A stretch of 64,000 bases of DNA. Origin: Escherichia phage FL20. Where the stretch lies: sequence record PP400781; one strand, given 5' to 3'. The first letter of the stretch is position 1. The number at the start of each line of letters is the position of its first letter. Positions 6,206 to 64,000 of the stretch are shown here, piece by piece. Below the pieces are notes generated by a model that worked only from the letters and a program-made list of their open reading frames with translations, was not told where the DNA came from and made no database searches. The translations under genes were made by a program, and so were the position numbers.

Positions 6206-7447
6206 ATGACTCATATTTTTACTGAACTGTTGCGGGAATCTACTTCCTCAGTAGCTAACCAGACAGCGCGACCGCAACTATTATCATTAACTCGCGCGGT
6301 AAACAACCTGATTTTCTCTGATCTGGTAGCAATCCAGCCAACGGATCAACCAGTATCTGCATTGTACGGCCTACGTTATCTTAATCATGATGGTCAGATG
6401 ACTTTCCGAACTGCTGCAACCTACGGTGGCGCGGTTGGTGATCGCACAGAGATTGAAGAGTTTTCAAAAGAAAAATCTTATGACGAAGGCGCACTATTCA
6501 AATCAGGCGATGTTGTATACGAAGTTGTGACCGCTGGTACAGTCGGTGAAGATGCCGCAACTCCAGAAGCTGCGATCTTTAAAGGCGTAATGACAAACAA
6601 AATTCGTTTCTATAGCGATTGTGCATCGGTAGAATACTTTGAAGATAAAAACACCGAAATTGCGTCTACCTCTATGCAGTTTGACAAGTGGCAAGTTAAT
6701 GTAGGTTCTCGTAAACTGAAAACCTCATTCACGACCGAATTGATGCAGGATCTTGAGGCAAGCCAAATCAACTCTGAAAACTCTGTAATTGATCTTCTGG
6801 CGACTGTTGCTTCCGAAGAGATCAACAAAGATATTATTCAGAAGTTGATCACTGTATCATCTCGCTATAAAATTAAAGGGATCACCCCTGATGGCGTACT
6901 TTCTCTCGTTAGCGTTCAGGATGCACCAACACAAGCGCGTGAACTTTACCGCTACGCGTGCGAGATGAGCAATCAAATGTTGCGGACTTCCTCCTTTGCT
7001 GGTACATACGTTTTGGCGTCTTCTCGCGTGGTTGGCCTCCTGCAATCATCCGGTTGGATGGAAGAAACCGACAATGCTCTAAGCGAAGGTCGTCTACGTT
7101 GCGGTCTGGAAGTGTACGCAGACACGACAACACCTTTCGATTATATGCTCGTTGGTTGTAAGCACATGATCGGTGATATGGAGAGTGTAGGTTCTCTGTT
7201 CTACTCCCCATATACAGAAGCCGACGGCGCTGGCGCGTATAAGAGCGTAATTGACCCTAATAGCTTCCAGCATCATGTAGCTATTATGAATCGTTATTCA
7301 CTATCTGTCAACCCATACACATCAAAAGTTGATCAGGAAGAACACCAGGTCATCAAGGGTGACGATTGGGGTAAAATGGCTGGACGTTCAGAAATGTCCT
7401 ACATTTTAGGAATCGAACTGCCACCGCTTGAGATTGACAACGCTTAA
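6206..7447 (+). CDS. 24: capsid vertex protein
   Basis: Start moved to ATG at 6206 (MTHIF, AGGA upstream, downstream of late promoter); gp23 paralog by position. Confidence 0.85.
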   Translation: MTHIFTELLRESTSSVANQTARPQLLSLTRAVNNLIFSDLVAIQPTDQPVSALYGLRYLNHDGQMTFRTAATYGGAVGDRTEIEEFSKEKSYDEGALFKSGDVVYEVVTAGTVGEDAATPEAAIFKGVMTNKIRFYSDCASVEYFEDKNTEIASTSMQFDKWQVNVGSRKLKTSFTTELMQDLEASQINSENSVIDLLATVASEEINKDIIQKLITVSSRYKIKGITPDGVLSLVSVQDAPTQARELYRYACEMSNQMLRTSSFAGTYVLASSRVVGLLQSSGWMEETDNALSEGRLRCGLEVYADTTTPFDYMLVGCKHMIGDMESVGSLFYSPYTEADGAGAYKSVIDPNSFQHHVAIMNRYSLSVNPYTSKVDQEEHQVIKGDDWGKMAGRSEMSYILGIELPPLEIDNA

Positions 7448-8035
7448 CTAAATATCTAACCAAGACAAGTCAGATCCGCCCAAGATTTTTTCGACGGCGG
7501 ATCTATTTTCTTGATGATATAAGTTAAAACATGGTATCCCATGTCTACGGGCAACATAAACAGCAATTCGAGTTCCTCCCGAAACGATTCCATTAACTTC
7601 TTTCGCCCAAAATAACACACAATCTACAGGATCATCAAGTGTCTCACCTAAAACTTGAGCAACATTTCTAGAAAACAGATTTTGCATGTATAACGGTATA
7701 GAACGAGGATTATCATAAACTTGTTCTAATTCATCCATCGCCAGATTTTTTTGTTCTAAGGTTTGCCATGCAATCACATCATGACCGTTATGCTTGTGGT
7801 CATAAAACTTCCAATTTGGAATGAAAATTTTTCTATAATCTGGATCGTAATATTTCATGAAAGCATTGTCCATACCGTAAGCCCCTCCAGAATGCGCTAC
7901 AACGCGATTTTCTGACAATACCCTCCCAATGGTACTAGCCATTATCAAAATGTCGCTAGGCGCTTTTCTAGAGCCTATTAAAGCACATCTACGAAGTGGT
8001 TTTACTCCAAATAGATCTTGTAACTGGTCAAACAT
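7448..8035 (-). CDS. DprA/Smf-like Rossmann (SLOG superfamily) protein
   Basis: 195 aa; ALIGSRKAP and AHSGGAYGMD resemble DprA GSR and SGxAxGxD motifs; C-terminal SGGTRIAVYVARRHGIPCF. Confidence 0.55.
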   Translation of the reverse strand: MFDQLQDLFGVKPLRRCALIGSRKAPSDILIMASTIGRVLSENRVVAHSGGAYGMDNAFMKYYDPDYRKIFIPNWKFYDHKHNGHDVIAWQTLEQKNLAMDELEQVYDNPRSIPLYMQNLFSRNVAQVLGETLDDPVDCVLFWAKEVNGIVSGGTRIAVYVARRHGIPCFNLYHQENRSAVEKILGGSDLSWLDI

Positions 8036-8188
8036 AATATTTCCTCCATAGAAAGCAATATCATACTACAAGTTAATAACAAATACAAGTATCCGCGTAG
8101 CGGAAGCGAGCACAGCGAGCAATAAAAACACTTCCAGTAATTGATTAATAAATGTTCGAAACAAATTTTTATTATTCTATAAGATAAG

Positions 8189-8214
8189 TCTTCGTTTTGA
8201 TCATAATTTAATCA
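8189..8214. repeat. 26-bp direct repeat, copy 1
   Basis: TCTTCGTTTTGATCATAATTTAATCA, identical at 8338-8363. Confidence 0.8.
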
Positions 8215-8337
8215 CACATGTAAAAACTACACAAAAGGATATCGCTTCGCGAACTCCTACGGAGTATAACATTTGTGTTACAATATGTAGTGATTAATAA
8301 TTAACCAAAGATACATTTTCTATGTTCTAAAGATCTT

Positions 8338-8363
8338 TCTTCGTTTTGATCATAATTTAATCA
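8338..8363. repeat. 26-bp direct repeat, copy 2
   Basis: Identical to 8189-8214, 149 bp apart in AT-rich non-coding region. Confidence 0.8.
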
Positions 8364-8416
8364 AACAGTATTAATATTGTGCACATGTAAACTAAAATTA
8401 TGTTAATAACATATAC

Positions 8417-8441
8417 AAAAAAGCCGCCCCGAAGGACGGCT
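8417..8441 (-). terminator. rho-independent terminator (minus strand)
   Basis: Minus-strand hairpin AGCCGTCC-TTCG-GGGCGGCT followed by U-run; just after stop of 8450..8887. Confidence 0.7.
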
Positions 8442-8449
8442 AATGTTAA

Positions 8450-8887
8450 TTATTTGTTGATAACGATCTGATTTCGGCGAATGGTAACATTACTCTTAGA
8501 GATGATCAGATCATCCGGCACTACGTTAGTTTTGTATGGTTGGAAGCGAACAAGCATCTGATTGCGTTTAGACCCTTCCTTAATCTTGATTTCCATCTGG
8601 ATATTGTTGCCTACGTGAGCAACCGCAATTTCACCTTTATTCTCATAGACCCACTTGCTGGTAACGTCTCCAGCAAAAGCCTTAATAACTTGCAATGCTT
8701 CGTCGTATGCGGTAGAGCTGTGAACTTTCAGAAGGCCAGCCGTAGAAAGACGGGAGCAGGTGATCGCCGGAGATTGCCAAACATCAACATTAATTTGCTC
8801 AATCAGAGTAACACCGCCCTGATCAACTGCTTTGAATGCTTCGAACATTGCCTTTTTCATTGCTACGTGGTTTTTACGGAATTTCAT
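8450..8887 (-). CDS. hypothetical protein (145 aa)
   Basis: Intact ORF between gene 24 and hoc; own terminator; no recognisable motif. Confidence 0.5.
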   Translation of the reverse strand: MKFRKNHVAMKKAMFEAFKAVDQGGVTLIEQINVDVWQSPAITCSRLSTAGLLKVHSSTAYDEALQVIKAFAGDVTSKWVYENKGEIAVAHVGNNIQMEIKIKEGSKRNQMLVRFQPYKTNVVPDDLIISKSNVTIRRNQIVINK

Positions 8888-8933
8888 AATTAGTCACCTC
8901 TATTGATTAGTTATTCAGAATATTAATTACAAA

Positions 8934-9209
8934 TCAGGACATTGCCCGTTTGAATGCGTCCATTATAACAGTGTTATTTGGCATGTCAACACGTTTTTGA
9001 ACTTTATTTTTAAATTTTTTGTTGATGTGGTGTTTACGATAAACAACCTTTTCACGGTTGGCGTAAGCCTCTCGTGCATCTTTTACCATCAACCATGCCT
9101 TAGCCGCATCTTGTCCGCTGATCCCGCCAATCTTTTTAGCAATATCAACAAAATTAAGACCGTGGTCTTCGCGTAGCATGTAAACCATTAACGCTGTTTT
9201 CTTGTCCAT
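8934..9209 (-). CDS. hypothetical protein, possible HTH
   Basis: Start placed at internal Met (MDKKTALMV) coupled to stop of upstream ORF; the track ORF extends to 9317. Confidence 0.4.
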   Translation of the reverse strand: MDKKTALMVYMLREDHGLNFVDIAKKIGGISGQDAAKAWLMVKDAREAYANREKVVYRKHHINKKFKNKVQKRVDMPNNTVIMDAFKRAMS

Positions 9210-9560: not shown

Positions 9561-9570
9561 GCACAAAAAC

Positions 9571-9596
9571 AAAAAAAGCCACCCCGAAGGATGGCT
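9571..9596 (-). terminator. rho-independent terminator after hoc
   Basis: Minus-strand hairpin AGCCATCC-TTCG-GGGTGGCT followed by 7 U. Confidence 0.75.
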
Positions 9597-49701: not shown

Positions 49702-49726
49702 AAAAAAGCCTCCCCGAAGGAAGGCT
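49702..49726 (-). terminator. rho-independent terminator after gene 32
   Basis: Minus-strand hairpin AGCCTTCC-TTCG-GGGAGGCT followed by 6 U. Confidence 0.7.
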
Positions 49727-57900: not shown

Positions 57901-58701
57901 GGAACATCTCAAGTTGTTGATAGTAATGCTATCGCTTTCGGTAAAATCAATGATGGTGGAGTCGTCGAGCATTACGCCTTTGCTATGGAACACAATGGCG
58001 ACGCGACAGCATATAGAGACTTTATTGCAGGTCGTAACCTGTATGCGAAACAAGGCGGTTTATACATTGTTGACCAGTCTAATCCGGCAATGACTCGTTC
58101 CCCAGATGGTATGCTGAATATCGGTCACGGTGGAAGTGTTAACATCAAGGCAGGTCATCAAACGTTAACTACAGAGATCGCCGGACAGAAATATCAGATC
58201 GTCCACGCAGGAAACGCAGACGAAGTTCTTAACCGTCAGTTTGTTAAGAATGCTGGCGATACAATGGTCGGTAAGCTGACTATGGATAATGCGCCTATTG
58301 TTTCTGTTAAGCATGAAGCTAGCGCGGCAACCGCTCCGGCAATCAGCAACATCGGTTTCTGGAATATGCGCGTTACTACCCAGAACATCAAAGAAACTTA
58401 TCCAGAGAAGAAAAACGGTACTCTGATGCAATGGGGTACTGACGCGGACGGGCTTACCCAGCTTTGGTCCCCCGATGGTACTCATAAACATTATATCCGT
58501 TCCGGTACTGGTGGTCAATGGACCGCATGGGGTGAAATTTACACCAAACAGAATAAGCCTACCGCTCAGGAAATCGGGGCAGTAGTTGCAGAAGGTGGTT
58601 TAATGAACTCTATGACGGTTCGTGACTGGATCAAAGTTGGTAATGTTAAAATCATCGCCAATAATCTGACTCGTACCGTAGACTTTATCTGGGAAGACTA
58701 A
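54961..58701 (+). CDS. 34: long tail fibre proximal subunit gp34
   Basis: 1246 aa; about nine ~36-aa repeats of type ATExRRGIAEIATQxET; position after rnh. Confidence 0.9.
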   Translation: MADFSQHFKATFGFDAGNEKVVNVAYADKNTSTDAVNVEFFNYHNGITQYDTTRGYDQYGTTIYQNRPYYAKEDITKPAGDFDPTKWQALRTDPRWDYVAATSGDTPLKSGDYIAADGQFANLTFSMPTKPAEGDTITVKDIGGKCGVNELSFLSSGHEFYHNGNVYNRKWYCTTPYAMNYFIFVRNRWHVYQTGTEPRGVYAQPAIDAIQMQNGDQVFRRSSLGNITLVLPKFANNGDMIQTTDLDGLTATNHVTVKVHEHAEEQSIGTSGLKEIIGKRSGHGVFIFDKTENLWRLWDDDQSVRLNPIINDTRLQPNSYVAVFGGRDVTLTLPTNVEPGDRIQVSMQYMHGNQTCRIITSEEDTKILMQKNMVQFPKRSEYPFNGTDTWTGVSELSFNAANDYVPYLEFSYSEGDDGKKYWLVAHAHPIVERVDPTRKDRVGVIALATQDETNKNHEDNPSDEVAVTPKVLANKTANETRRGIARIATQAETHQDTGSNFLDDVIVTPKKLNDCVATEARRGVMEIATQHETNEGLDDTRAITPKKLEERRASEDLAGIAEIVQVGGSAAARRGEAGTGIYNINDHAKIVTPQNINEVKATETSRGVGYLATDAEVQGATESTPQDALLITTRTLTKRTATESRTGIAEIATQEETNLGQSDNHIITPKKLHTRRATETLHGLAEIATQSEFDAGLDDARISTPLKIKTFFENAQRLKVDPTQGLNLTGDLWQGIMISGLDATEDTKGVSKVATTQLTDAGQDDTTIITPKKLQGKKATEGKEGIIRVGTQAETVAGIMDNVAISPKNFKYVVQTEDTWKATEARRGFLKVATQENCFVGDNLQGSTQELGNYQHDGIAVTPKGLNYALANFLPKMATAQNSLKLGNVEAAKWARRDVDQTIESNYTFNKKVNVKGDLECLKSGSFETLSVTKNSTDDPSNGHLVLGERGVDGHTGITLHGTTASEGMENSWSIIVGGTGTSQVVDSNAIAFGKINDGGVVEHYAFAMEHNGDATAYRDFIAGRNLYAKQGGLYIVDQSNPAMTRSPDGMLNIGHGGSVNIKAGHQTLTTEIAGQKYQIVHAGNADEVLNRQFVKNAGDTMVGKLTMDNAPIVSVKHEASAATAPAISNIGFWNMRVTTQNIKETYPEKKNGTLMQWGTDADGLTQLWSPDGTHKHYIRSGTGGQWTAWGEIYTKQNKPTAQEIGAVVAEGGLMNSMTVRDWIKVGNVKIIANNLTRTVDFIWED

Positions 58702-59875: not shown

Positions 59876-59886
59876 CATTTTTAACA

Positions 59887-59917
59887 AGCCGATCCTCGGG
59901 GTCGGCTTTATTTTTAT
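59887..59917 (+). terminator. rho-independent terminator after gene 35
   Basis: AGCCGACCccgaGGATCGGCT hairpin followed by TTATTTTTAT. Confidence 0.7.
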
Positions 59918-60036
59918 ACAGTTGGTTAAAACATAACCAAAACGAAGAAAGATCTTTAGAATAATAGAAAATTTGTTTCGGTTAAAAAATAGTCAGTGCC
60001 TACGGCACGTCGCGAAGCGATATTTTGTTAACATTC

Positions 60037-60044
60037 TATAAATA
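60037..60044 (+). promoter_or_regulatory. T4-type late promoter TATAAATA (gene 36)
   Basis: Exact TATAAATA 34 nt upstream of gene 36 ATG. Confidence 0.65.
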
Positions 60045-61636: not shown

Positions 61637-64000
61637 ATGGCAGATTTAAACAGAATCCAGTTTAAACGCACTAGCGCAGCCGGACGTAAACCGGATGCTG
61701 GTACGATGAATCCGGGAGAGTTGGCAATTAACTTAGCAGACCAATATCTGCTTACAAAAAATGATGATGGGCAAATTGTTAATTTAAGCTGCCCTCCTGT
61801 TTATGATAAAGGCTTTAATGTAAACGGTCGTGTTGTTGTAGATGACCTTGTGTGGAGTAATACCGCAAACTATTTCGATGATCCGACCGCACGAAATCTT
61901 GATAAATTTGGGGCGTTTCGTACTAATGATATGGATGGTCATCTAGCATTGGCTTTGCATATTCCCCATCCTAGCGGTATAAATCATGCTCGTGGGTTGG
62001 ATTTTACTTATGGTTCTAACGTTGTTCCTACTGTAAAAACCTATGGTTATAACGCTGATGGTGTATTGGCATATTCATATCGCATGTATCACGAAGGTGA
62101 TAAGCCTAGTCCGTCAGAATTGAATGTGTACAGCAAACAAGAAGTAGATCGGATGTTCCAGAAGACCATCAACTTTGGTGTAGAAACTGGTTGGTTTAAA
62201 ATTGCTACCGCCTTTATTCCGCAAAATTATGGACGTAGCTTGAAAATTAGATTGATTGGTGGAAATGGGTGGAACGTAGGACAAACTGGACAATGTAATA
62301 TTATTGAACTTGTTATAAGGACTAGCAACGGTTCGCCTAAAGGAATTAACTTTGTTGCGTATCATCATGTTTCTGGTTACGAAAATCAATTTTGTGCCAT
62401 TAATACAGGTGATGACACTTATGATATCTATGCATATTACTTCGAATTTACTAATATGGTAATGGCCGAATATCAAGCGTCCAGCGATGTTAATTTAACT
62501 GTACTTGATCGACCTGAATATGTAGGCGATAAACCTGTAGCTGACCATATCTATGATGCATATACAATACACTCCTTTAACAGTTTCAGTAACCGTGGAA
62601 CGTTAAATTTTGCTGGAAACCATCAAGGCCAATATGACATTGAGCATTTGAACGAACAACAAACAAATGCTAAGAAAATGTTGCGTCGCTTCCGTAGTTC
62701 TGCTCCTGCCACTATCTGGCACGAAAGTGTTGATGACCAAAATTATCGTCTTGCTACTGGATATACCGATGTAACCCAACAATTATTGCTTTCGGCTGTA
62801 ACCGGTTTGCATATTCGTAGATTGACCATCGATGGTGGCTTAGGTTCCGGTTCTAATGCTGGTATTGATATTCGTCGAGGACCAAACGAAGCAAGCCATT
62901 TTAATTTTATGGATTATCGCACTGGTCAAGATGTTCGTAATGGTTGGTTTGGTTTTGGTGATTTGACGACCAAAGATTTTATTTGGTGGAACGATAACGG
63001 TCAAAACTCGATAAACTTGATTGAAAACGGTGAATTACATATTACTGGCGGTAAAGGCCAGAAAATTGTAATGAATAGCGAAGTTGCATTATCTGAAAAT
63101 GCTCGTTTGGCTGTTAAAGGTGGCAATTATGGCTTAATTTTTAGAAATGATGGTACTGGTTTCCATATACTGACTACCGATTTAAAAGATTCTTTTGGTA
63201 ATTGGAATAATCGTAGACCATTCAGCTATGATTTTGCGGACGGTGGATTATATTTAGGTGGCACTGAAACCGCTCGGTGTTTGCATCTGGGAATTGATGG
63301 TAGCACTCGTCTTGAAGACAACCTGTTCTTTAAAGCTGGTTCTCGTCAGTCTATGGACTATATGGAACTCGTCCATTGGGGGGCAAGCAATACAGGTCGA
63401 AATAACGTTTTAAGTCTTCGTGACTCAAAAGGATTTTTCGCAGAATTTGAACGATTGGGTGATAATACCATTAAAAACACCTTCTTCGGAAGATTTAAAG
63501 TCAATGGTGATTCTAACGCTATTACCATTAATGCTCCTACTGATTCTGATGCTGTTTATGTGAAAGGTACTTGTAACGATGTAGATAACTGGTATATCGG
63601 TAAAGGTGGTGCTGGTAATGGATTAGTTTTTTGTAGTTATAGGTCTAATGCGGCTGTTCATCTCACAGATAATGGTGAGGTTTTATTAGCCCCACAAAAC
63701 ACCGCAATTGTTAACATAAATCGCGACCGTATACACATCAACGGAACACAGTGGGTGGCACACCAGTCAGGCGGCTGGGGTGACCAATGGGGATTAGAAG
63801 CGCCGATATTTGTCGATTATAATTATGTTTCACCGGACTGTTATTATCCGATTATCAAAGGAAGAAGTTTAATCACCAATCAAGGGTATACAACTGCCGT
63901 CGATTTTGGTATGCGTCGTACCCCTAACAATTGGGGACAAGCAATTATTCGTGTTGGATCTGCGGAGAACTCGCCAGCGGCTGGTCATCCTCAAGCTGTA
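61637..64000 (+). CDS. 37: long tail fibre distal subunit gp37 (partial, continues past window end)
   Basis: N-terminus MADLNRIQFKRTSAAGRKPDAGTMNPGELAINL matches T4 gp37; first ~150 codons read without a stop, remainder not translated codon by codon. Confidence 0.8.
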   Translation, partial: MADLNRIQFKRTSAAGRKPDAGTMNPGELAINLADQYLLTKNDDGQIVNLSCPPVYDKGFNVNGRVVVDDLVWSNTANYFDDPTARNLDKFGAFRTNDMDGHLALALHIPHPSGINHARGLDFTYGSNVVPTVKTYGYNADGVLAYSYRMYHEGDKPSPSELNVYSKQEVDRMFQKTINFGVETGWFKIATAFIPQNYGRSLKIRLIGGNGWNVGQTGQCNIIELVIRTSNGSPKGINFVAYHHVSGYENQFCAINTGDDTYDIYAYYFEFTNMVMAEYQASSDVNLTVLDRPEYVGDKPVADHIYDAYTIHSFNSFSNRGTLNFAGNHQGQYDIEHLNEQQTNAKKMLRRFRSSAPATIWHESVDDQNYRLATGYTDVTQQLLLSAVTGLHIRRLTIDGGLGSGSNAGIDIRRGPNEASHFNFMDYRTGQDVRNGWFGFGDLTTKDFIWWNDNGQNSINLIENGELHITGGKGQKIVMNSEVALSENARLAVKGGNYGLIFRNDGTGFHILTTDLKDSFGNWNNRRPFSYDFADGGLYLGGTETARCLHLGIDGSTRLEDNLFFKAGSRQSMDYMELVHWGASNTGRNNVLSLRDSKGFFAEFERLGDNTIKNTFFGRFKVNGDSNAITINAPTDSDAVYVKGTCNDVDNWYIGKGGAGNGLVFCSYRSNAAVHLTDNGEVLLAPQNTAIVNINRDRIHINGTQWVAHQSGGWGDQWGLEAPIFVDYNYVSPDCYYPIIKGRSLITNQGYTTAVDFGMRRTPNNWGQAIIRVGSAENSPAAGHPQAV

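Follow-up and report, generated by a model that had tools for sequence, protein, structure and literature searches.

A repeated, conserved stem-loop element in a 414-bp non-coding gap of Escherichia phage FL20, with a homologue in an Escherichia coli prophage

In T7-like phages, repeated intercistronic RNase III hairpins of ∼20 bp with internal loops define mRNA ends, and in the temperate coliphage HK022 the put element, a structured RNA of ∼70 nt, acts in cis on the host RNA polymerase to cause antitermination without a phage protein. REP/BIME and ERIC sequences and MITEs are short imperfect palindromes that are repeated in intergenic regions, are transcribed with neighboring genes, and influence mRNA ends and stability. 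T4-like phages have been much studied, yet their non-coding DNA beyond promoters, terminators, and the PeSLs of the RB49/phi1 group is largely uncharted. The PeSLs number ∼50 per genome, the majority of them before ORFans in hyperplastic regions (Arbiol 2010, PMC2839356). They are defined by a consensus sigma-70 promoter plus a stable stem-loop, typically GGGG...CCCC, as terminator (PMC2839356) and have been proposed to provide both regulation and homology for module exchange (PMC2839356; Comeau 2014, PMC4122927). Here we describe another repeated intergenic stem-loop element, located in a 414-bp non-coding gap at positions 8036 to 8449 of a 64,000-nt stretch of Escherichia phage FL20 (PP400781), together with its homologue in an integrated E. 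coli prophage. The stretch as a whole is referred to as the window, and coordinates are window positions unless named otherwise; its source is an RB49/phi1-type T4-like coliphage of the genus Krischvirus.

The gap almost certainly contains two tandem, diverged copies of one composite element, units A and B. It is flanked by two minus-strand open reading frames (ORFs), that of a DprA-like gene (7448 to 8035) and that of a 145-amino-acid (145-aa) gene (8450 to 8887); their shared strand means that the gap is read in the minus-strand direction and that it lies upstream of the DprA-like gene. The minus-strand order is the stop codon of the 145-aa gene, an intrinsic terminator, ∼330 nt with the repeats, a Shine-Dalgarno sequence, and the DprA-like start codon. 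As a preliminary description of this DNA had stated, the gap is the largest non-coding one in the window and is A+T-rich (30.0% G+C, versus 40.5% for the window); its Phi1 equivalent (Phi1 98764 to 99178, 413 bp) is likewise the largest intergenic gap of the annotated Phi1 genome, where the runner-up measures 307 bp. The two identical 26-bp repeats reported in the same description, 149 bp apart, are exact copies of TCTTCGTTTTGATCATAATTTAATCA at 8189 to 8214 and 8338 to 8363, and no third copy was found when up to 3 mismatches were allowed (0 matches in 100 shuffles). These 26-mers are the best-conserved 5′ arms of two tandem imperfect hairpins of ∼74 nt, core A (8142 to 8215, minus strand; nhmmer E = 2.9e-12; covariance model 75.6 bits) and core B (8291 to 8364, minus strand; nhmmer E = 1.4e-14; covariance model 83.1 bits, core B being part of the training set of the model), which carry repeat copies 1 and 2, respectively, and have diverged outside the arms.

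In each unit the ∼74-nt stem-loop is followed after 0 to 36 nt by one or two mini-hairpins, with G+C-rich stems of 4 to 6 bp and 3-nt loops, and then by a T-rich tail. The mini-hairpin of unit A, TCCGC-TAC-GCGGA (8092 to 8104, minus strand; 5-bp stem, 3-nt loop), is terminator-like in the terminator scan and accounts for the GC-rich palindrome noticed earlier, CCGCGTAGCGG at 8093 to 8103, which forms the hairpin together with the flanking T/A; a GCGAGC direct repeat (8105 to 8120) adjoins it, so that the whole feature spans 8092 to 8120 on the minus strand. Unit B has mini-hairpin 1, ACTCC-GTA-GGAGT, at 8265 to 8253 and mini-hairpin 2, TCGC-GAA-GCGA, at 8252 to 8242. The segment ∼150 bp from the palindrome that had been described as partly complementary to it is real (8242 to 8265) but is the paralogous mini-hairpin module of unit B, not a long-range pairing partner. 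Hairpins with 5-bp stems and 3-nt loops are not enriched genome-wide (40 observed versus ∼36 in shuffles), and the presence of a mini-hairpin beside every core is therefore not attributable to chance. Small ORFs in the gap have only 8 to 10 codons, lack ribosome-binding sites, and are not kept between copies; the element is non-coding, since hairpins of variable length disrupt any reading frame.

Two further copies were found, at late-gene loci. A short-word BLAST comparison of the gap with the window returned a related stretch on the opposite strand (∼59940 to 60025), between tail-fiber genes 35 and 36. The core at this locus, core C (59922 to 59995, plus strand), was recovered by blastn and nhmmer (E = 1e-15) and scores 93.5 bits with the covariance model. 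It is preceded directly by the intrinsic terminator of gene 35 (59886 to 59908, plus strand), which is annotated in Makalu_003 and G2248, and is followed by two mini-hairpins (59996 to 60021, plus strand), GTGCC-TAC-GGCAC at 59996 to 60008 and TCGC-GAA-GCGA at 60010 to 60020. The T4-type late promoter of gene 36, TATAAATA (60037 to 60044, plus strand), identified by pattern search, lies 16 nt past the cassette and is invariant in 9 sequences. Copy D, which came to light when the gap was compared with the whole Phi1 genome, is upstream of gene 3, outside the window (Phi1 62488 to 62585), and is 97% identical to copy C over 99 nt; genes 36 and 3 have their late promoters 11 to 16 nt after copies C and D. 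A profile search found exactly four copies in Phi1, three of them in the window, to which the covariance model added none, and the family is present in 58/58 Krischvirus records, at 230 places altogether. The copies form a mosaic, with 24 exact nucleotides common to B and C and 23 common to A and D. The mini-hairpin stems are ACTCC/GGAGT in B, GTGCC/GGCAC in C and D, and TCCGC/GCGGA in A, while TCGC-GAA-GCGA with the T-rich tail is present in B, C, and D. All copies lie in virion-gene modules (next to genes 24/hoc, 35/36, and 2/3), where they occupy the spacers between transcription units, and all three Krischvirus loci are co-oriented with the neighboring genes.

Insertions of free-standing homing endonucleases also concentrate in the spacer that holds copy D (Phi1 62450 to 63960). 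Between gene 2 and ORF130, Phi1 and G2248 carry ORF130.1, which PHROG assigns to the endonucleases and which contains a CapR domain; PHB13, UPWr_E1, and one metagenomic relative do not have it. In the metagenomic relative, an insert of ∼590 bp that by eye reads as coding for a putative HNH-AP2-type endonuclease separates mini-hairpin 2 of copy D from the gene 3 late promoter, lying precisely between the two.

The element belongs among the repeated intergenic stem-loop cassettes and matched no described RNA family. The best Rfam 15 match in the window had an E value of 0.094, far under the gathering score, none at gathering level was found in the prophage loci, and relaxed E values gave chance-level matches only; an ARAGORN scan for tRNA and tmRNA found 0, and the core motif was not found in the searchable literature. 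The PeSLs resemble it in phage group and as repeated ∼100-bp intergenic stem-loop cassettes at gene boundaries, whereas the element has four copies, in virion-gene modules, and its mini-hairpins have stems of 4 to 6 bp with 3-nt loops instead of polyG/polyC stems; the terminator at 8441 to 8422 does fit a PeSL stem. The gap locus is unmentioned in the PeSL paper (Arbiol 2010, PMC2839356). Identity with the PeSLs was rejected, because no gene-strand promoter-like site occurs in or beside cores A to D and because there are 4 copies, not ∼50. The element shares with REP/BIME and ERIC sequences and MITEs the repetition of short imperfect palindromes in intergenic regions and differs in being phage-borne, in its four fixed positions, and in the absence of target-site duplication. 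Inverted-repeat-like ends, a MITE-type feature, are present; a MITE was nevertheless rejected on the grounds that no copy has a target-site duplication and that the 58 genomes show no presence/absence polymorphism.

Conservation within the genus argues that the element is selected. The segment from 7400 to 8950 is matched at ≥95% identity by 58 phage records, and the gap region itself is kept in 58/58 of them (94.7 to 99.8% identity); the absence of conservation of the repeats in related genomes, which the preliminary description had named as grounds for discarding its proposals, was thus not observed. Variable columns were counted per 100 nt in an alignment of 7448 to 8887 from 11 Krischvirus genomes. 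The DprA-like gene has 6.8 (30/40 at third codon positions) and the 145-aa gene 11.9 (43/52 at third positions), compared with 2.7 in core A (2/74), 5.4 in core B (4/74), 3.6 in the terminator segment at 8422 to 8449 (1/28), and 0 in an invariant block downstream of core B (8233 to 8282, minus strand; 0/50), which comprises mini-hairpins 1 and 2 and part of the T-rich tail. Cores A and B together are variable at 6/148 columns, about five-fold less than synonymous sites (73/342 third codon positions; P = 2e-7) and less than the adjacent spacers (32/132; P = 8e-7). At the other extreme, the hypervariable spacer between the terminator and core B (8365 to 8421) has 35 (20/57 columns). These counts show that the cores and the hairpin block are under strong purifying selection, with the intervening spacers free to vary. 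Among the prophages, 52/56 genomes keep the 161-nt element at ≥95% identity, against a surrounding 3.7 kb that is only 80 to 90% identical in 34/58.

The same data bear on the proposal that the region is a rearrangement scar, or more generally a non-functional remnant, whether a decayed tandem duplication, the trace of a recombination event with a prophage, or a MITE-like selfish repeat that is now dead. The multiple copies, the inverted-repeat-like ends TGATTAA...TTAATCA, the exchange of other DNA with the prophage that shares the element, and the homing-endonuclease hot spot at the D locus would all suit such an origin. Purifying selection on the cores and hairpin block, the compensatory stem changes presented below, the lack of target-site duplications in the flanks as read, and the fact that no copy is missing among 58 genomes speak against it, and we consider it the least probable of the readings weighed here; the scar proposed earlier is accordingly not supported. 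As a separate observation, variability in the spacer at 8365 to 8421 is far above that of synonymous sites and includes a block replacement in G2248, and a second small block replacement is found in Brandy at 8226 to 8232.

The conserved cores fold into a common predicted structure. Folded singly, copies A, B, and D and the prophage copies are each predicted to form one long imperfect hairpin, which in core A is the minimum-free-energy fold. The stem-loop model has a 7-bp outer stem (TTGATTA/TAATCAA), an internal loop, an inner stem of ∼13 bp, and an apical loop of ∼25 nt; sequence conservation extends to the outer stem (TGATTAA/TTAATCA), the 5′ arm, and a motif in the apical loop, rATCTT..GAATAt.GAA. 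Covariation was tested with 17 distinct sequences over the 7 outer and 13 inner pairs. In the model, 85.9% of cells are paired, versus 26 to 50% with the partners slid, and changes on both sides occur in 7 pairs (7/13 of the inner stem), versus 0 to 2 with slid partners and 0/500 shuffles; the signal also holds on the two measures least prone to false positives. The two divergent prophage variants are decisive for the structure, with inner stems ACATCAAAAGAG/CTCTTTTGATGT and CAAACGTA/TACGTTTG that align column for column with TAACCAAAACGAA/TTTGTTTCGGTTA in copy C. Judged from these alignments, the predicted pairing is maintained through compensatory substitutions. At loci C and D (9 aligned sequences at locus C), variation falls mostly in predicted loops and unpaired segments, and the inner stem and mini-hairpin stems are invariant; the local loop occurs as AAACA, AATTA, AATTG, AAACG, and AAATG, and the apical loop also varies. 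RNAalifold applied to the cores alone returned just two short hairpins. This fold, which has the local hairpin TTGrTTA...TrAyCAA, reaches 92.7% pairing with one covarying pair and may be an alternative, inseparable from the long hairpin on these data.

Outside Krischvirus, the element was found in one other phage type. A scan of IMG/VR with a 21-base core pattern matched Krischvirus contigs plus more than 20 contigs of 17 to 45 kb, which carry a core match of ∼75 to 83 nt (76 to 82% identical) followed by GCAACC-GAA-GGTTGC and TCCC-GAA-GGGA. These contigs represent an integrated siphovirus-like prophage present in 56 to 58 of 5426 complete E. coli genomes. The prophage element sits at one edge of an unannotated non-coding region of 1.25 kb, flanked by a leftward operon (a small ORF and a Rha-family gene) and a rightward operon. 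The same region has extra mini-hairpins, including ACGCC-GTA-GGCGT...GCGAAGCGA...TATCC, much like unit B, and a module of a hairpin plus GCGAAGCGAGC that resembles unit A; past the mini-hairpins lie other repeats, variant-dependent iterons (∼400 bp away from the core), and a consensus promoter. In the direction of the element, a promoter-like site was called only in the prophage variant L018 and is not used as evidence. No third family was detected, with 0 matches in species-representative genomes, 0 in plasmids, and only the same two families in metagenomes; looser left-arm patterns added only two matches, in L058 and L060, both due to chance, and complete genomes and pattern scans revealed no copy in E. 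coli DNA outside the prophage.

The prophage iterons are of two types, AGTGTAGGTTT repeated ∼7 times or TTCAGGGGCAAAAA repeated ∼9 times depending on the variant (L018 8330 to 8450 versus L009 2890 to 3100), and the N-terminal half of the downstream prophage protein of 313/331 aa differs in parallel with the iteron type. This suggests that the iterons and the protein could form a specificity pair, either a replication initiator with its origin or a repressor with its operator.

Virulent and temperate phage share little else. In tblastx comparisons only tail-fiber and LprI-like proteins are common to the two: the C-terminal region of the gp37 tail fiber, with up to 65% amino acid identity, and also the end of gp36 (gene 37 at ∼61860 to 64000; prophage L036 8578 to 12266), and an LprI-family gene (Phi1 ORF262, 157890 to 158696; L036 26593 to 27372) whose product is 93 to 95% identical to the copy in some prophage variants. 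This level of identity indicates that the virulent and the temperate phage have exchanged genes recently. No nucleic-acid-binding protein and no flanking protein is common to Krischvirus and the prophage. Separately, Krischvirus and the prophage have short intrinsic terminators that are identical over 26 to 29 nt although the genes around them are unrelated (window 9568 to 9596; Phi1 100296 to 100324 versus L036 7071 to 7099; Phi1 58418 to 58443 versus L022 4538 to 4563).

Our preferred explanation, to which we assign a probability of roughly 0.4, is that the element may work in cis as an RNA cassette, fixing where transcripts end and keeping the next unit insulated with the help of a host factor. 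Conserved pairing implies that the element would act in single-stranded form, and RNA is favored because the loci are co-oriented with genes, the hairpin tails are T-rich, and the copies stand at operon boundaries; a host factor is invoked since neither phage type has a nucleic-acid-binding protein in common with the other. The element would act as RNA inside read-through or intergenic transcripts. A host RNase or RNA polymerase would use the long stem-loop as its site of recognition or processing, and the mini-hairpins, which are followed by T-rich tails on the gene strand, would serve as weak terminators or 3′-end protectors, possibly in both directions. Together these parts would set transcript ends and shield the DprA-like gene, late gene 36, and late gene 3 from upstream and antisense transcription.

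Three hairpins of the family were called terminator-like. The criteria for intrinsic terminators clearly apply to 8441 to 8422 and 59886 to 59908 and apply weakly to 8104 to 8092, 60009 to 60021, and the copy D hairpin, which have 5-bp stems and interrupted T runs. The 74-nt core was considered as an intrinsic terminator in its own right and is not one.

The 7-bp and ∼13-bp helices separated by an internal loop and supported by covariation were compared in dimensions with an RNase III processing site, which calls for about two turns of double-stranded RNA with an internal loop in an intercistronic transcript. Like the T7-type hairpins, the copies are repeated, related hairpins with internal loops, and the reliance on a host enzyme proposed here would be a further likeness; they differ in having no sequence similarity to them, A+T-rich weak stems, and a 25-nt apical loop. 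HK022 put is similar in being a structured element of ∼70 nt and in its occurrence in a temperate coliphage, whereas put has two stem-loops in a promoter-proximal position and the present element has one long hairpin, usually past a terminator. This covariation-supported element, which selection keeps at four operon boundaries across a genus of therapeutic-candidate coliphages, offers a target of ∼130 nt for how RB49-type phages, without middle-mode transcription, delimit or start their late units. Even if it did no more than insulate or terminate, the genome annotation of the largest “empty” gap would still be corrected.

Several observations weigh against an RNA cassette of this kind. The orientation argument is limited to three loci (P about 0.25), and the orientation of the prophage element relative to transcription is ambiguous. 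Promoter scans revealed no conserved promoter before any Krischvirus copy, and copies B and C lie directly downstream of strong terminators, those of the 145-aa gene and gene 35. For these two reasons the levels of the RNA may be low; a literature search found no Krischvirus transcriptome papers. A terminator or processing role leaves the conserved apical loop and 5′ arm unexplained. The core hairpins, rich in A+T, are weak (−10 to −14 kcal/mol). When both strands were folded, a check that had been suggested, the z-scores of the whole-region folds were alike on the two strands (−3.1 and −2.7); G·U pairs lean slightly to the gene (transcribed) strand. The mini-hairpins are perfect palindromes, and hairpins of the GCGAAGC type with a GAA triloop are exceptionally stable in DNA. 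Finally, the loop of mini-hairpin 1 in copy C, usually TAC, is inverted to GTA in Sf20 and Makalu_003, and Delraymugoa has TCC there, a loop also seen at locus D of another genome. A TAC-to-GTA flip with an unchanged stem is what would be expected of template switching within a DNA palindrome, and the flips thus indicate events at the DNA level.

These points lead to the most probable of the competing explanations, one that we still regard as unlikely: the element may act as DNA in replication or recombination, its palindrome and mini-hairpins folding in single-stranded or extruded DNA, for example to serve as an origin, to signal priming, to create a hot spot of recombination, or to provide a fixed clamp-loading site before late promoters. 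DNA hairpins are equally compatible with the covariation. The perfect Watson-Crick palindromes with GAA, TAC, or GTA triloops that flip between genomes, the weak helices, the strong terminators before B and C, and the lack of a preceding promoter all suit such a role, as do the late promoters 11 to 16 nt downstream of copies C and D and the position of the prophage element, which borders iterons that change type together with the downstream protein. In T4, oriE, oriF, and oriG are found close to where late-gene modules switch strands (PMC3016281), and RB49-type phages are without MotA and middle promoters (Nolan 2006), so their origins are not of the T4 oriF/oriG type. The element is like oriF and oriG in being non-coding, in lying in late-gene regions near strand switches, and in the single-stranded or R-loop structures involved, whereas those origins need a MotA-dependent promoter and an unwinding element (PMC3016281). 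An A+T-rich core could be an unwinding element and would be insufficient alone to define an oriF/oriG family; a T4-type R-loop origin was rejected, because no promoter lies upstream of the cores. More generally, a role in DNA is opposed by the absence of promoters and iterons at the Krischvirus copies, by the ∼400 bp between the prophage core and the iterons, by an orientation that tracks local transcription, not a fixed genome direction, and by the lack of T4-type late-transcription machinery in the prophage.

The conserved apical loop raises a further alternative, that of a trans-acting small RNA or decoy freed from longer transcripts, which would pair with host or prophage RNA or titrate a factor, for example to neutralize some activity of resident prophages in which the element also occurs. 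The architecture is like that of antisense RNAs, with a stem-loop, a conserved loop of ∼25 nt, and 3′ hairpins with U-rich tails, and the four copies in a virulent phage and its other recent gene exchange with the prophage would be in keeping with it. A scan for duplexes with the apical loop in Phi1 and the prophage, however, returned only the antisense strands of the elements themselves; the next best duplex (−21.6 kcal/mol) involved a non-mRNA strand. Given also that the Krischvirus copies have no conserved promoter and that Rfam yielded no match, we consider this reading rather improbable, below a role in DNA. The small RNA suggested in the preliminary description therefore survives in part: a structured RNA is the reading we prefer, but no conserved promoter lies upstream, and hypervariability of the 57 bp before copy B (8365 to 8421) argues against a conserved promoter for that copy. 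Between these two alternatives in likelihood, and likewise doubtful, we place the broader possibility that the element represents a new class of host-factor-dependent structured nucleic-acid module exchanged between virulent T4-like and temperate phages, as a non-coding RNA or as hairpin initiation sites. The former would be a processive antiterminator, or a decoy or anti-prophage RNA working through the 25-nt loop; the latter would be fixed hairpins for initiating replication or recombination, replacing the absent MotA-dependent origins. The element also opens a test of whether virulent and temperate phages swap regulatory modules besides genes.

The location upstream of the DprA-like gene had suggested a promoter or regulatory region for that gene. 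The part of this proposal that holds concerns the two ends of the gap. At the far end, the intrinsic terminator of the 145-aa gene (8422 to 8441, minus strand), found by terminator scan, consists of AGCCGTCC-TTCG-GGGCGGCT followed by a T run and is annotated in GEC-3S and G2248; in RB49, a terminator and no promoter were predicted in this gap (Nolan 2006 supplement). At the near end, the proximal ∼60 bp alone look like a promoter and ribosome-binding site of the DprA-like gene. The putative signals (8036 to 8088, minus strand) are TTGTAT (8088 to 8083), a 17-nt spacer, TATGAT (8065 to 8060), GGAGG (8047 to 8043), and ATG (8035). TTGTAT-17-TATGAT is under the scan threshold (3/6 and 5/6 consensus matches) and was read from the sequence; the TATGAT −10 is invariant in 11 genomes, and the TTGTAT −35 is altered at one position in 1/11. 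The DprA-like label itself is based on PHROG 768 (E = 1.4e-60) and a Pfam DNA_processg_A match below the cutoff.

That the repeats themselves are promoter or operator sites controlling the DprA-like gene is very unlikely. The gap is directly upstream of the gene and contains the weak promoter and GGAGG just described, but the same element precedes the unrelated genes 36 and 3, the prophage shows no detectable DprA-like homologue in the loci compared, and the cores are 100 to 330 bp from the start codon, with no RB49 promoter predicted there (Nolan 2006). A gene-strand sigma-70 scan and the late-promoter pattern TATAAATA gave no match within the gap, and thus none in or beside cores A and B. 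IHF, CRP, LexA, and DnaA consensus sequences, compared with the region by eye and without a formal test, gave nothing convincing.

A few neighboring features deserve mention. A perfect sigma-70 consensus promoter, with TTGACA, a 16-nt spacer, and a TG-extended TATAAT, lies at 8962 to 8989 on the minus strand, within the 3′ end of a 24.3-like ORF and just upstream of the 145-aa gene; it is of the early-promoter type described for PeSLs. Terminators related to that of the gap recur at 9572 to 9596 and 49702 to 49726. The third-largest gap of Phi1 (58316 to 58595, 278 bp) contains a G+C-rich non-coding stretch of ∼190 nt that ends with a strong terminator followed by a consensus promoter and could encode a structured RNA.

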